Source: Eledone cirrhosa (Eukaryota). Taken from it: 64,000 nt of DNA. The position numbers and the translations under genes are program-made. The DNA lies in contig OZ024750.1 of assembly GCA_964016885.1 (NCBI GenBank), positions 45,818,001 through 45,882,000 of the forward strand. The letters run 5' to 3'. Shown here one piece after another: positions 32,676 through 64,000 of the stretch. Numbering within the stretch: position 1 is the first letter of the stretch; every line of letters starts with the position of its first letter. Below the pieces are notes generated by a model. It saw only the letters and a program-made list of their open reading frames with translations. It was not told the DNA's origin and made no database searches.

Positions 32676-33230
32676 AAGGAGGATTGGCAGTATCGGTAGA
32701 AGGTCGGACGCCATGCTTTGCAGCATAGGTACGTCCCTTTACGATCTGAGTTCAAATCCCGCCGAGGTTGACTTTGCCTTTCATCCTTACGGGGGTCGAT
32801 AAAATAAAGTACCAGTAATGCACTGGGTAATTGCTGTCCTTGTGCCTTAAGTAGAAACAATTATTGAATTGGCAGTATCGGTAGAGGGTCGGACGCCATG
32901 CTTTCCAGGATAGTTACGTCCCTTTACGATCTGAGTTCAAATCCCGTCGAGGTTAACATTGCCTTTCATCCTTACGGGAGTCGATAATATAAAGTACCAG
33001 TAATGTACTGGGTAATTGCTGGCCTTGTGCCAAAAGTAGAAACAATTATTAAAGTATCACTCGTTTGAGCGTCGGACAACATGCTTCCTTGTTTAGTGTT
33101 ACGTTCCTTTACGTTATGAGTTCAAAACCCTTCAACGTTAGTTTTGCCTTTCATTCCTACAGGTTCATTTTAATCGACTTTCCCCTCCCAAAAGATTGCT
33201 GGCCTTGTACCTAAATCTGAAACCATTATT
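32676..33230 (+). mobile_element. Head-to-tail cluster of SINE family 1 (two good copies and one diverged)
   Basis: Consensus repeated at about 32680, 32869 and 33052. Confidence 0.8.
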
Positions 33231-39720: not shown

Positions 39721-39939
39721 TTCATGATTTTTTAAGAATAAATTTCGTAATCCTAGAGTGATAGATAATTAGAACGATGTAATTATTATTAGCGCAAATA
39801 AGGTGTATGTAGATGATGTTGATTATGATGATGATGGTGTTGTTCTTGTTGTTCTTGTTGTTAGTTTTGTTGGTGTTGTTAGTGGTAGGAGTGTTTGTAG
39901 CGTTGCTGTTGGTCATGTTTGCGGTAATGGCTGTGATGG

Positions 39940-42900
39940 TGGTGATGGAGATGGTGTTTGTGATGCTGCTGTTGGTGGTGATGGTGGTGATGGTGGTGAT
40001 GGTGGTGTACCCCGATGGTGATAATGGCAGTGGTTGTAGTTGTGGTGGTGGCGAAGGTGGTGGTAGTGGCGATGGTCGTGAAGATGGTGGAAGTGCCGGT
40101 GGTGGTAGTGGCGGTGGTGACGGTGGTGGTAGTGGCGGTGGTGACGGTGGTGGTAGAGGCGGTGGTGGTGAAGGTGGTGGTAGTGACGGTGGTGGTGAAG
40201 TTGGTGGTAGTGGCGGTGGTGGTAGAGGCGGTGGTGGTGAAGGTGGTGGTAGTGACGGTGGTGGTGAAGTTGGTGGAAGTTCCGGTGGTGGTAGTGGCGG
40301 TGGTAGTGCCGGTGGTGGTAGTGGCGGTGATGATGGTGGTGGTAGTGGCGGTGGTGAAGGTGGTTGTAGTGGTGGTGGTGAAGGTGGTGGTAGTGGCGGT
40401 GGTGAAGGTGGTTGTAGTGGTGGTGGTGAAGGTGGTGGTAGTGGCGGTGATGATGGTGGTGGTAGTGGCGGTGGTGGTGAAGGTGGTGGTAGTGGCGGTG
40501 ATGATGGTGGTGGTAGTGGCGGTGGTGAAGGTGGTTGTAGTGGTGGTGGTGAAGGTGGTGGTAGTGGCGGTGGTGAAGGTGGTTGTAGTGGTGGTGGTGA
40601 AGGTGGTGGTAGTGGCGGTGATGATGGTGGTGGTAGTGGCGGTGGTGGTGAAGGTGGTGGTAGTGGCGGTGATGATGGTGGTGGTAGTGGCGGTGGTGAA
40701 GGTGGTTGTAGTGGCGGTGGTGAAGGTGGTGGTAGTGGTGGTGGTGAAGGTGGTGGTAGTGGCGGTGATGATGGTGGTGGTAGTGGCGGTGATGATGGTG
40801 GTTGTAGTGGTGGTGGTGAAGGTGGTGGTAGTGGTGGTGGTGAAGGTGGTGGTAGTGGCGGTGATGATGGTGGTGGTAGTGGCGGTGGTGAAGGTGGTGG
40901 TAGTGGCGGTGGTGAAGGTGGTTGTAGTGGCGGTGGTGAAGGTGGTGGTAGTGGTGGTGGTGAAGGTGGTGGTAGTGGCGGTGGTGAAGGTGGTGGTAGT
41001 GGCGGTGGTGAAGGTGGTTGTAGTGGCGGTGATGATGGTGGTTGTAGTGGTGGTGGTGAAGGTGGTGGTAGTGGTGGTGGTGAAGGTGGTGGTAGTGGCG
41101 GTGATGATGGTGGTGGTAGTGGCGGTGATGATGGTGGTTGTAGTGGTGGTGGTGAAGGTGGTGGTAGTGGCGGTGGTGAAGGTGGTGGTAGTGGTGGTGG
41201 TGAAGGTGGTGGTAGTGGTGGTGGTGAAGGTGGTGGTAGTGGCGGTGATGATGGTGGTGGTAGTGGCGGTGGTGAAGGTGGTGGTAGTGGTGGTGGTGAA
41301 GGTGGTGGTAGTGGCGGTGGTGAAGGTGGTGGTAGTGGTGGTGGTGAAGGTGGTGGTAGTGGTGGTGATGATGGTGGTGGTAGTGGCGGTGGTGAAGGTG
41401 GTGGTAGTGGTGGTGGTGAAGGTGGTGGTAGTGGTGGTGATGATGGTGGTGGTAGTGGCGGTGGTGAAGGTGGTGGTAGTGGTGGTGGTGAAGGTGGTGG
41501 TAGTGGTGGTGATGATGGTGGTGGTAGTGGTGGTGGTGAAGGTGGTGGTAGTGGCGGTGATGATGGTGGTGGTAGTGGCGGTGGTGAAGGTGGTGGTAGT
41601 GGTGGTGGTGAAGGTGGTGGTAGTGGTGGTGATGATGGTGGTGGTAGTGGCGGTGGTGAAGGTGGTGGTAGTGGTGGTGGTGAAGGTGGTGGTAGTGGCG
41701 GTGATGATGGTGGTGGTAGTGGCGGTGGTGAAGGTGGTGGTAGTGGTGGTGGTGAAGGTGGTGGTAGTGGTGGTGATGATGGTGGTGGTAGTGGTGGTGG
41801 TGAAGGTGGTGGTAGTGGCGGTGATGATGGTGGTGGTAGTGGCGGTGGTGAAGGTGGTGGTAGTGGTGGTGGTGAAGGTGGTGGTAGTGGTGGTGATGAT
41901 GGTGGTGGTAGTGGTGGTGGTGATGGTGGTGGTACTGGTGGTGGTGAAGGTGGTGGTAGTGGCGGTGGTAGTGCCGGTGGTGGTAGTGGCGGTGATGATG
42001 GTGGTGGTAGTGGCGGTGGTGAAGGTGGTTGTAGTGGTGGTGGTGAAGGTGGTGGTAGTGGCGGTGGTGGTGAAGGTGGTGGTAGTGGCGGTGATGATGG
42101 TGGTGGTAGTGGTGGTGGTGAATGTGGTGGTAGTGGTGGTGGTGAAGGTGGTGGTAGTGGTGGTGGTGAAGGTGGTGGTAGTGGTGGTGGTGAAGGTGGT
42201 GGTAGTGGTGGTGGTGAAGGTGGTGGTAGTGGTGGTGATGATGGTGGTGGTAGTGGTGGTGGTGAAGGTGGTGGTAGTGGCGGTGGTGAAGGTGGTGGTA
42301 GTGGTGGTGATGATGGTGGTGGTAGTGGTGGTGGTGAAGGTGGTGGTAGTGGCGGTGATGATGGTGGTGGTAGTGGTGGTGGTGAAGGTGGTGGTAGTGG
42401 CGCTGGTGAAGGTGGTTGTAGTGGTGGTGGTGAAGGTGGTGGTAGTGGCGGTGGTGATGATGGTGGTGGTAGTGGCGGTGGTGGTGAAGGTGGTGGTAGT
42501 GGCGGTGGTGAAGGTGGTTGTAGTGGTGGTGGTGAAGGTGGTGGTAGTGGCGGTGGTGGTGAAGGTGGTGGTAGTGGCGGTGGTGAAGGTGGTTGTAGTG
42601 GTGGTGGTGAAGGTGGTGGTAGTGGCGGTGGTGGTGAAGGTGGTGGTAGTGGCGGTGATGATGGTGGTGGTAGTGGTGGTGGTGAAGGTGGTGGTAGTGG
42701 TGGTGGTGAAGGTGGTGGTAGTGGCGGTGATGATGGTGGTGGTAGTGGTGGTGGTGAATGTGGTGGTAGTGGTGGTGGTGAAGGTGGTGGTAGTGGTGGT
42801 GGTGAAGGTGGTGGTAGTGGTGGTGGTGAAGGTGGTGATAGTGGTGGTGATGATGGTGGTGGTAGTGGTGGTGGTGAAGGTGGTGGTAGTGGCGCTGGTG

Positions 42901-43260
42901 AAGGTGGTTGTAGTGGTGGTGGTGAAGGTGGTGGTAGTGGCGGTGGTGATGATGGTGGTGGTAGTGGCGGTGGTGGTGAAGGTGGTGGTAGTGGCGGTGG
43001 TGAAGGTGGTGGTAGTGGCGGTGGTGAAGGTGGTGGTAGTGGCGGTGGTGAAGGTGGTGGTAGTGGTGGTGGTGAAGGTGGTGGTAGTGGCGGTGGTGGT
43101 GAAGGTGGTGGTGGTGGTGGTGAAAGTGGTGGTAGTGGCGGTGGTGGTGAAGCTGATGGTAGTGGCGGTGGTGGTGAAGGTGGTGGTAGTAGCGGTGGTG
43201 GTGGGGGCGATGGTGGTGAAGGTGGTGGTAGTGGAGGTGGTGGTGAAGGTAGTGGTTGAG
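39940..43260. repeat. GGT-based minisatellite with about 24-bp unit ggtggtggtagtgg(c/t)ggtggtgaa / ...gatgat
   Basis: 3.3 kb of near-pure repeats; produces the 1148-aa Gly-rich and 1094-aa Val-rich ORFs. Confidence 0.9.
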
Positions 43261-43510: not shown

Positions 43511-43832
43511 CGTTATTCCGGGTTGAATCGGAGGTAACCACAGTAAGTAAGGTACTCAATACATAGCAGAGTATAAAAGTTTTAATATAGAAGAGATTCT
43601 ACAGGACTAGAACTGTTTCATTCTTTAGAAATCATCAGGATTCCTGATGATTTCTAAAGAATGAAACAGCTCTAGTCCTGTAGAATCTCATCTATATTAA
43701 AACTTATATATATATATATAAACAACAGATTAAAGTTTAAGCAAAGAATCGCTGCTTTCACCCTTAACAGGATCTTCTGATTTTAGTCTTCACATTTATT
43801 ATTATTACTATATATATATATAAACACACATA

Positions 43833-60077: not shown

Positions 60078-60310
60078 TGGAGGTCGTGGGTTCGATTCCT
60101 GGGTTGCGTGTTGTGTTCTTGAGCAAAACACTTCATTTCACGTGACTCCAGCTTACTCAGCTGAAAATGAGTACCAGCAATAGCTTTGGGTTTAACCCTG
60201 CGATGGACTGGCGTCCTGTCCAGGTGGGAGACGTGTACGCTCAGTCGCTTACCGCCATGAAACCGAGATAAGCACAGGTCAAATGAGCCTTCTGGCTTAA
60301 GACAGACTTT
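60075..60310 (+). mobile_element. SINE family 2 variant
   Basis: B-box ggttcgattcc, ttgagcaaaacacttcatttcacg, and 3' aaccctgcgatggactggcgtcctgtccagg. Confidence 0.75.
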
Positions 60311-61240: not shown

Positions 61241-61757
61241 CGAACTGCTCTGTAGAAACAACTGATGTTATTACATAGCACTATTTATCTTACTGGTAAT
61301 AAGGTAGTAATAAATTACTGTCTTTCACTGTTTAGGGTGTAAAAAATATATAACTATAACAAGTTTTAGTATATACATAACCATAAATAGTATCCTTAAT
61401 ACTAGATATAAATATGTGTATATATATGTGTATTTACATATATATATATATTTCTATGTCCCCGTGCATATACATACACATGCACCCATGCATATACATA
61501 TATACACACACATGTAGATGTGTATATACATATTTACACACTTTTGGATGGCCGTTGAACCCTATGAGATCTTCCGCCCTTTGTCAGGTTTTGTTTTTTG
61601 TCCTGCAGGGTGTCCAAAATCACCCTCCTCACCAAGTAAACTTGGTGGGGTTGCCGGTTTAGTCGCCGATGACCCCACCACGCGACAGGTTGTACTGGGT
61701 TACATGTTACCAGTATCACTCAAGAGTGACCCGATATATATATATACATATACATAT

Positions 61758-61816
<59 letters not shown>

Positions 61817-61820
61817 TATA

Positions 61821-63858
61821 TTGGAATAAATGCTCTGAAATAGCGATATATATGTGAATATAGACATAGAATATTCGAAAATATTCTGTATGTTTATAAT
61901 AAACATTTTGAAGACCTAATCGCTATAGAATAGAATACGTCACGTATTACAATTAGATTCTCGATAAAAGCAAGGGAAGTAATCTACGCGTTTCATTCTT
62001 GTTAGAAATCATCAGGACTACATATCCAGTGCTTTTATCGAGAATGACACAGCTAGAGACTTATAGAATACTTAGCTGTGTACAGGAACTGGTTTGAAAG
62101 AGCGGTTGCCGGTCCGGCAGAAATTAGAAATTGGAATAAATGCTCTGAAATAGCGATATATATGTGAATATAGACATAGAATATTCGAAAATATTCTGTA
62201 TGTTTATAATAAACATTTTGAAGACCTAATCGCTATAGAATAGAATACGTCACGTATTACAATTAGATTCTCGATAAAAGCAAGGGAAGTAATCTACGCG
62301 TTTCATTCTTGTTAGAAATCATCAGGACTACATATCCAGTGCTTTTATCGAGAATGACACAGCTAGAGACTTATAGAATACTTAGCTGTGTACAGGAACT
62401 GGTTTGAAAGAGCGGTTGCCGGTCCGGCAGAAATTAGAAATTGGAATAAATGCTCTGAAATAGCGATATATATGTGAATATAGACATAGAATATTCGAAA
62501 ATATTCTGTATGTTTATAATAAACATTTTGAAGACCTAATAGCGATTAGGTCTTCAAAATGTTTATTATAAACATACAGAATATTTTCGAATATTCTATG
62601 TCTATATTCACATATATATCGCTATTTCAGAGCATTTATTCCAATTTCTAATTTCTGCCGGACCGGCAACCGCTCTTTCAAACCAGTTCCTGTACACAGC
62701 TAAGTATTCTATAAGTCTCTAGCTGTGTCATTCTCGATAAAAGCACTGGATATGTAGTCCTGATGATTTCTAACAAGAATGAAACGCGTAGATTACTTCC
62801 CTTGCTTTTATCGAGAATCTAATTGTAATACGTGACGTATTCTATTCTATAGCGATTAGGTCTTCAAAATGTTTATTATAAACATACAGAATATTTTCGA
62901 ATATTCTATGTCTATATTCACATATATATCGCTATTTCAGAGCATTTATTCCAATTTCTAATTTCTGCCGGACCGGCAACCGCTCTTTCAAACCAGTTCC
63001 TGTACACAGCTAAGTATTCTATAAGTCTCTAGCTGTGTCATTCTCGATAAAAGCACTGGATATGTAGTCCTGATGATTTCTAACAAGAATGAAACGCGTA
63101 GATTACTTCCCTTGCTTTTATCGAGAATCTAATTGTAATACGTGACGTATTCTATTCTATAGCGATTAGGTCTTCAAAATGTTTATTATAAACATACAGA
63201 ATATTTTCGAATATTCTATGTCTATATTCACATATATATCGCTATTTCAGAGCATTTATTCCAATTTCTAATTTCTGCCGGACCGGCAACCGCTCTTTCA
63301 AACCAGTTCCTGTACACAGCTAAGTATTCTATAAGTCTCTAGCTGTGTCATTCTCGATAAAAGCACTGGATATGTAGTCCTGATGATTTCTAACAAGAAT
63401 GAAACGCGTAGATTACTTCCCTTGCTTTTATCGAGAATCTAATTGTAATACGTGACGTATTCTATTCTATAGCGATTAGGTCTTCAAAATGTTTATTATA
63501 AACATACAGAATATTTTCGAATATTCTATGTCTATATTCACATATATATCGCTATTTCGGAGCATTTATTCCAATTTCTAATTTCTGCCGGACCGGCAAC
63601 CGCTCTTTCAAACCAGTTCCTGTACACAGCTAAGTATTCTATAAGTCTCTAGCTGTGTCATTCTCGATAAAAGCACTGGATATGTAGTCCTGATGATTTC
63701 TAACAAGAATGAAACGCGTAGATTACTTCCCTTGCTTTTATCGAGAATCTAATTGTAATACGTGACGTATTCTATTCTATAGCGATTAGGTCTTCAAAAT
63801 GTTTATTATAAACATACAGAATATTTTCGAATATTCTATGTCTATATTCACATATATA
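61821..63858. mobile_element. 310-bp hammerhead tandem array (non-LTR retrozyme-like) with internal inversion
   Basis: About 2.3 minus-oriented units (61821, 62131, 62441), a turn at 62541-62544, then about 4.2 plus units (62541, 62851, 63161, 63471, 63781). (TA)n on both sides. Confidence 0.92.
62754..62796 (+). ncRNA. Type I hammerhead of the 310-bp unit (also 63064, 63374, 63684 plus; 61979-62021 and 62289-62331 minus)
   Basis: gtagtc-CTGATGA-tttctaacaagaat-GAAA-cgcg-TA-gattac. Stem I is extended by attctcgataaaagca / tgcttttatcgagaat. Confidence 0.88.
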
Positions 63859-63865
63859 TATATAT

Positions 63866-64000
63866 GAAGGCGTGTGGCTGAGTGGTTAGAGAATTGGATT
63901 CGCAATCGTGAGGTTGTGAGTTCGATTCCTGGAACAGGCGATGCGTTATGTCCTTGAGCAAGACACTTTATTTCACGTTGCTCCTTCTACCTGGAGTTGC
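63866..64000 (+). mobile_element. SINE family 2
   Basis: ggcgtgtggctgagtggttag (A box), gagttcgattcc (B box), ttgagcaagacactttatttcacgttgctcc. Confidence 0.85.

Follow-up and report, generated by a model that had tools for sequence, protein, structure and literature searches.

The window, by which we mean the whole 64,000-nt stretch of DNA analysed here, contains a 2040-nt array of hammerhead-bearing units at 61820–63859. The array has a period of 310 nt and 6.6 units, in agreement with the earlier note on this DNA, which had described ~6.5 near-identical 310-bp units. The units form two head-to-head arms, and the inversion proposed at 62541–62544 with ~720-bp perfect arms was recovered as perfect inverted arms of 726 nt each with these 4 nt between them. 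The right arm exceeds the left by 600 nt, and the A>G substitution at 63559, the one previously reported, was the sole difference within the array. Both 3' ends had been said to run into (TA)n, and they do, the right tract being short and soon followed by a SINE-like repeat. The two outer ends correspond to different unit positions, 165 and 131–139, where position 1 of the unit is 62791, the base after the predicted cut. The features are as follows.

61779–61819, no strand: left (TA)n target tract
61820–62540, minus strand: left arm, 721 nt, 2.3 units; its 3' end is unit position 165, the "long end", and bears the tail
61820–61845, minus strand: "tail", unit 140–165, at one outer end only
61985–62015, minus strand: hammerhead core, left arm, outer
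62295–62325, minus strand: hammerhead core, left arm
62539–62544, no strand: inversion junction; a 2-nt microhomology (62539–62540) joins unit positions 65 and 59, with an asymmetric 4-nt centre at 62541–62544
62539–63859, plus strand: right arm, 1321 nt, 4.3 units; its 3' end is unit position 131–139, the "short end"
62730–62818, plus strand: type I hammerhead whose stem I is extended; core at 62760–62790, predicted cut after 62790; period 310 nt
62791–63100, plus strand: a single 310-nt monomer, counted from the base after the predicted cut and predicted to form an RNA circle
62849–62935, plus strand: branched stem-loop, unit 59–145, with compensatory changes in sister families; candidate reverse transcriptase binding site
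63070–63100, plus strand: hammerhead core, right-arm copy 2
63380–63410, plus strand: hammerhead core, right-arm copy 3
63690–63720, plus strand: hammerhead core, right-arm copy 4
63852–63859, plus strand: short-end AU tract, unit 132–139, matching the (TA)n target exactly; the primer probably anneals here
63860–63866, no strand: right (TA)n target remnant, then a SINE-like repeat

The monomer has a GC content of 34% (106 G+C of 310) and is non-coding, with no LTR pair and a single ATG ORF of 30 aa, so the element is non-autonomous. High-copy SINE-like repeats surround the array (60080–60149, 61570–61720, and 63867–63990), and the array sits in (TA)n directly before one of them. Elsewhere, the window holds a 3.3-kb G-rich tandem array with a 24/48-nt period and extreme strand skew (39934–43254), and a 185-nt tandem repeat of 2.6 copies with 85% match (32683–33154).

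A type I hammerhead had been proposed for each complete unit, and we found it in 6/6 complete units, four on the plus strand and two on the minus strand. The core is CUGAUGA/GAAA/GUA, with the predicted cut after 62790. The 16-bp distal extension of stem I claimed before (62730–62745 paired with 62803–62818) is present in the MFE fold (z −6.4, 0/200 shuffles as stable). Helix II begins with a U.U mismatch as its first pair, and helix III would consist either of one pair closing CGCG or of a 6-bp intermolecular duplex (−9.5 kcal/mol predicted). Rfam returned no hammerhead match at the gathering score; in E-value mode, Hammerhead_HH9 was aligned over its full length with a weak score (19.2 bits, E 0.026). 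The exact 40-nt core occurred 4470 times genome-wide, while its reversed control occurred 0 times, and the motif is therefore not due to chance. In the sister families described below, both sides had changed in 7/11 hammerhead pairs, including the core pair C3-G8, which became U3-A8, in a comparison of 12 units; these are related sequences and the structures were drawn from the same sequences, so that the counts lean in favour of covariation. The covarying pairs indicate that the hammerhead has been under selection as a long-lived functional ribozyme across the sister families. Within the family, the absence of array-wide variants from the 12 core bases (0/36, p 0.24) was weak alone, and a loop control base (14 mutants) was about as invariant as core G5 (18) and A13 (2). 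Transcripts of the unit are predicted to cleave themselves.

Other arrays were abundant elsewhere in the genome. Copies were counted by sequence patterns (the exact 40-nt core, a relaxed core, and exact junctions into (TA)n), and a pattern with four variable sites matched 17,812 hammerhead cores in the 3.0-Gb genome. Exact (TA)n junctions numbered 1006 at the long end (165) and 463 at the short end (131–139), and the copies were ~98–100% alike. The array at 61820–63859 is one insertion of a young, dispersed mobile family of ~18,000 copies, in which each insertion can be read as an experiment. A diverged 312-nt subfamily with ~15 differences from the unit was also observed (L311, L312). The public runs X4 (organism B) and X6 (organism D) each contained one 340-nt contig, which spans a unit and some overlap; matched to 62130–62469 and 62811–63150, these contigs differed from the window unit at 0 and 1 positions. 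In X4, the unit and one right-hand SINE bin were both at ~0.2% of X1 depth. Either other species carry this young element as well, or the contigs result from carry-over.

Arrays were sampled from one contig (C1) and chosen by an intact end, comprising the first 100 long-end arrays and those 20 of 37 short-end arrays that were unpaired with them. Among the 100 long-end arrays, 95 were head-to-head, four were one-armed, and one ran into a gap; among the first 37 short-end arrays, 29 were two-armed and eight were plain 5'-truncated single arms. The set of 101 complete two-armed arrays leaves aside L061 and L107 (three-segment centres), L095, L100, and L290 (incomplete in one stretch), L070 (gap), L173 (11-nt second arm), and the one-armed arrays. 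Arm lengths varied widely across arrays, reaching 8.5 kb.

The inversion had been attributed to a fold-back insertion, in which the first cDNA would have snapped back and copied itself; it could also be a sequencing or assembly chimera. The centre in the window is indeed almost symmetric, with a 6-nt offset and 2-nt microhomology, and no independent contig or read was found across this array's own junction. However, its outer ends differ and enter different flanks, and across the 101 arrays the two inversion points were unrelated, with a uniform offset between them (Rayleigh p 0.51) that fell within 10 nt in 9 arrays compared to 6.8 expected. Of the two arms, the long-end one was longer in 58 arrays and the short-end one in 43, and the shorter arm of L082 has units that are absent from its longer arm. 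Given these unrelated inversion points and the lack of a consistently longer arm, coincidence is the simplest account of the near-symmetric centre in this array. Contigs of the public run X1 held at least seven head-to-head joints at other positions, indicating that this class of structure is not peculiar to the present assembly. At the centres of the first 65 arrays, microhomology of at least 2 nt was found in 26 (~18% expected at random), 0–1 nt in 14, and extra bases in 25. Together, the unrelated inversion points and widely varying arm lengths leave the fold-back unsupported and fit two separate primings. As a general mechanism, fold-back is rejected on the uniform offsets and the either-arm-longer pattern, and we give a fold-back or chimeric origin of the inversion almost no credence.

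The outer ends of the 101 arrays lay at 125–139 on one side and 155–172 on the other, usually 26–35 nt apart. The long end was at position 165 in 93/101 arrays, most of the arrays having been selected on that end; the 10 arrays chosen otherwise ended at 155–172. The short end coincides with the AU tract of the unit (~130–139), and in its commonest junction classes a target T replaced C131 (42) or C131 was kept (25), as if the (TA)n end had paired with the AU tract in shifting register. Outer ends that were not chosen by (TA)n likewise enter (TA)n. Because both ends lie inside (TA)n, a target-site duplication cannot be read. The idea of a "ruler" setting the long end was set aside, as the site is homologous without gaps in the sister families and sequence and distance are inseparable there.

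According to the available text of Craig et al., Penelope insertions favour (TA)n, carry an inverted 5'-truncated copy, and are extended on one side by a tail of 30–40 nt (10.1101/2021.04.23.441226). All of these were found in the present family: a tail delimited by two start sites in 101 arrays, with the same long-end position in sister families; an inverted 5'-truncated copy in 95/100 long-end and 29/37 short-end arrays; and a microsatellite or AT-rich insertion target. In the sections available of Frangieh et al., purified Penelope protein cut and extended both strands, two adjacent internal RNA start sites bounded the tail, and a dimer was predicted (PMC11167929). The genome-wide counts, ends, and architecture uphold the retrozyme identity put forward in the earlier note, and the two fixed ends in (TA)n lend support to its proposal that a Penelope-like reverse transcriptase was primed from both strands of a TA target. 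Penelope-type twin priming of the family is strongly supported by these sequence footprints, and from them we infer the identity of the mobilising reverse transcriptase.

Sister families with units of ~315–325 nt gave 5426 pattern matches, in addition to an older group. They have the same terminal region and both end positions, and often the head-to-head build. The fold at unit 59–145 lies just upstream of the start sites, and 4/20 of its pairs covary across these families, a count that leans in favour for the reason given above. It marks a second conserved RNA structure and is likely a protein-binding element. Older sister retrozymes of ~315–325 nt with the same ends and build were located at L191–L220, L122:2440–2864, L066, L116, and L221–L250, and in many of these older units the core has U3-A8 and helix III is a different palindrome.

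The genome contains >10,000 GIY-YIG candidates and ORFs with reverse transcriptase and GIY-YIG domains, and several families of the latter also end in (TA)n at two sites. Nine Penelope-type proteins gave no tblastn match in the window, and the array held no reverse transcriptase or GIY-YIG ORF. No autonomous element with the 3' region of the unit was found among 30 GIY-YIG, 20 long-ORF, 20 713-aa-family, and 30 + 30 sister-family loci, ~130 loci in all, which covered a small part of the >10,000 GIY-YIG candidates. Hammerheads near Penelope-type ORFs were rejected as signs of a partner, being the own minimal motifs of those elements or separate small insertions, and neither a 20-nt resemblance between the unit and the terminus of the 713-aa family (E 0.14) nor a short one to the L153 family tail, noted by eye, was significant. 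A by-eye look for Pol III boxes revealed nothing conserved across families.

Several Penelope-type elements were observed in the course of this search. One very abundant young family (L251–L270; 85,898 candidates, the best 131 of which were 96–100% identical) has a 713-aa open frame and is a candidate source of the active enzyme, with no clear terminal match to the unit. Autonomous-type Penelope copies at L156, L166, and L122 are themselves head-to-head pairs of 5'-truncated ORFs. Two ~210-nt hairpin elements with a minimal hammerhead are inserted in (TA)n within the window (28956–29162 and 43511–43719). Their helix II region nearly matches that of the 310-nt unit (74% over 80 nt), they also occur at L160, L169, and L181, and they likely belong to another non-autonomous Penelope-type family.

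The variants within arrays were informative about the template. The family comprises many haplotypes, yet both arms carried the same one in 68/71 informative arrays, compared to 7.8 by permutation (maximum 16 in 2000), and 18 private variants filled every covered unit of their own array (e.g., 25/25, 22/22, 19/19, and 18/18). Private variants in all units of both arms imply a one-unit bottleneck followed by repeated copying. These results point to one RNA monomer, likely a circle, that was copied repeatedly into both arms. The earlier note had proposed rolling reverse transcription of a 310-nt circular RNA; the concordant arms support its repeatedly copied monomer, which was probably circular.

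The same Penelope-type twin priming could have used a long, uncleaved linear array transcript, with a minor role for the hammerhead and no circle. Two primers that copied a linear transcript from a common terminal unit should leave single-unit variants of the source array at matching places in the two arms. If all templates were linear copies of arrays, ~31 mirrored in-register variants would be expected, assuming that singletons are real and were as frequent in source arrays as they are in today's; the pattern was seen in 2 of the 101 arrays (L091 and L108), and 81 in-register variants were not common to both arms. The one-unit bottleneck required by the 18 private variants in all units of both arms (18–25) also argues against a linear transcript. 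Several arrays nevertheless speak for it. Both arms of L108 change from one haplotype to another after two units, and a comparable mirrored variant occurs in L091; such a unit order, mirrored in both arms, cannot be given by a single monomer circle. Core mutation G5A occupies 2/3 adjacent units of L310, arm lengths are weakly correlated (rho 0.30), and the lizard Penelope, in the available text, used unprocessed RNA in vitro, preferring uncleaved RNA and dispensing with its own hammerhead (PMC11167929), which we count against our main reading. Together with L116, in which the arms differ, L108, L091, and L310 imply that some insertions used oligomeric or exchanged templates. As the general template, we consider the linear transcript unlikely.

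If the template were instead a hammerhead-cut linear monomer, with the enzyme crossing from the 5' end of the molecule back to its 3' end in every round, the resulting arrays would hardly differ from those made on a circle and would show the observed single haplotype per array. Two of the three array-wide indels lie 2–3 nt from the cut site, as such jumps might leave, and the mixed arrays L095 and L108 could be jumps to another molecule. Yet 5' truncation points were not enriched within 10 nt of the cut site (11/202, compared to 13 expected), which weighs against linear monomers more than against end-to-end jumping; unit joints were letter-perfect in nearly all units, and related retrozymes accumulate mostly as circles in the parts of PMC7229834 available. 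Jumping on a linear monomer is an improbable account, more so than the linear transcript. The insertions near the cut site were also considered as ligation scars, an idea that was weak because they lie 2–3 nt from the cut and not at it.

Later growth at the DNA level offers a further account, in which short two-armed insertions were expanded as satellite DNA by unequal exchange while conversion kept the arms alike. Satellite expansion was proposed for Xenopus retrozymes (10.64898/2026.07.22.740005, in its main text), and shared or recurring partial variants in the longest arrays (L072, L073, and L095) and in the older 312-nt L312 show DNA-level duplication in the longest and oldest arrays. Against expansion as the rule, 41/52 polymorphic substitutions in arrays of at least eight units (among the first 81 arrays) were singletons compared to 15.5 expected under gradual turnover, an excess that sequencing errors could have inflated. 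Furthermore, the 81 in-register variants unshared between arms indicate that the arms are not being converted. We hold it very improbable that satellite expansion built these arrays in general.

Some substitutions may record events on the RNA itself. Sense-strand A>G changes made up 10/33 array-wide substitutions compared to 11/118 singletons (p 0.004), although A>G against T>C alone was not significant (p 0.11). A20G, A259G, and A276G, which lie within the long stem or next to it, were found repeatedly on different haplotypes, and such recurrence may reflect A-to-I editing of double-stranded RNA. In L082, one arm lacks A276G in the four units copied first but carries it in every later unit, as does the other arm throughout; a circle altered during copying would leave this pattern, and so would a template swap.

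We consider it probable that a Penelope-type enzyme with reverse transcriptase and GIY-YIG domains cut both (TA)n strands and extended both ends on the same 310-nt RNA, and a circular RNA as the insertion template is our best reading, held with fair though not high confidence. In this sequence of events, the array would be transcribed and its hammerheads would cut the transcript to monomers, likely acting as dimers via the ACGCGU helix III. A host ligase would close the monomer into a circle, and the lone circle, cleaving itself poorly, would persist. To judge from the footprints, one DNA end would start at the AU tract (130–139) and the other 26–35 nt downstream, mostly at 165, both in (TA)n. 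Each primer would be extended through a differing number of rounds on the circle, giving arms of up to 8.5 kb, and the arms would be joined at unrelated positions by microhomology or a few extra bases, as the centres suggest. A single haplotype would fill both arms, as seen in most arrays, whereas in a minority of insertions the template would have been oligomeric or exchanged. Arrays that are long or old would later be enlarged by ordinary DNA duplication. We also weigh against this reading that, in the main text of the Xenopus study, 8/9 dimer retrozymes tested did not cleave (10.64898/2026.07.22.740005).

More tentatively, and at somewhat less than even chances, a viroid-sized RNA circle may parasitise the Penelope enzyme, whose two active sites, starting on it 26–35 nt apart and each from one strand of the cut target, would roll along it for up to 27 turns; the circle would be A-to-I edited while alive, in L082 apparently during copying. 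If so, each array would document, turn after turn, what happened on a single RNA molecule, and the general occurrence of an inverted copy plus tail in Penelope insertions would be explained. The identical units under other organism codes would then reflect a circle moving between species.

Retrozyme circles as insertion templates and the copying of circles by Penelope enzymes have been proposed steps, and both are made testable here. With the RNA sequence, both start sites, a covarying fold that may bind the enzyme, and the (TA)n target specified, rolling reverse transcription becomes directly accessible to the existing in vitro Penelope assay. The family may also offer an explanation for the inverted copies left by Penelope elements. 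In addition, it has recently added ~5.5 Mb of long perfect palindromes to one genome, a load that could affect stability as well as assembly.

Judged by all features open to test in the sequence (tandem 310-nt units, hammerheads, GC content, and dispersal), the family is a non-LTR retrozyme, its RNA side being predicted. Like the metazoan non-LTR retrozymes of coral, mussel, and axolotl (PMC7229834, PMC7761336) and of Xenopus and other vertebrates (10.64898/2026.07.22.740005), as described in the available texts, it is non-coding, low in GC, and present in thousands of copies as ~300-nt tandem units with one type I hammerhead. It resembles axolotl HHR_Amex1 in its weak palindromic helix III and HHR_Amex2 in the U.U at the base of helix II. 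The metazoan retrozyme RNAs in those texts were shown by experiment, whereas that of the present family is predicted. Those retrozymes are described there as direct tandems, with no mention of head-to-head arrays, fixed twin ends, or tails; the word "inverted" occurs 0 times in PMC7229834, and once each, in a reference title, in PMC7761336 and 10.64898/2026.07.22.740005. A review describes retrozyme repeats as lacking a motif that points to the mobiliser (PMC7761336, in part). The available text of PMC7229834 and PMC7761336 already put forward circular templates and mobilisation by Penelope elements, and Penelope mobilisation is backed by sequence kinship in Xenopus in the main text of 10.64898/2026.07.22.740005. 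The two-armed, tail-bearing, single-haplotype build was not found for a retrozyme in the literature searched (main texts only, with few subscription papers) and is, within that literature, what is new here.

The insertion ends place the family close to the endonuclease-bearing Penelope-like elements (Penelope/Poseidon, Neptune, and Naiad), which in the available texts share its 30–40 nt tail, inverted 5'-truncated copy, (TA)n bias, and hammerhead (10.1101/2021.04.23.441226, PMC11167929), as well as two adjacent internal start sites and the extension of both DNA strands (PMC11167929). Unlike these elements, as far as they are described there, the family has no ORF, both of its arms contain many units, and its hammerhead is a full one with a long stem I instead of the minimal form.

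In L1 twin priming, both target ends prime on one RNA, giving a head-to-head product with a microhomology joint; the upstream site at which the second primer anneals varies, and each arm is a copy of its own part of a linear RNA. The present arrays resemble L1 twin priming in that both target ends appear to have primed on one RNA with a head-to-head product, and differ from it in that neither start site varies and the two arms are built of one and the same unit.
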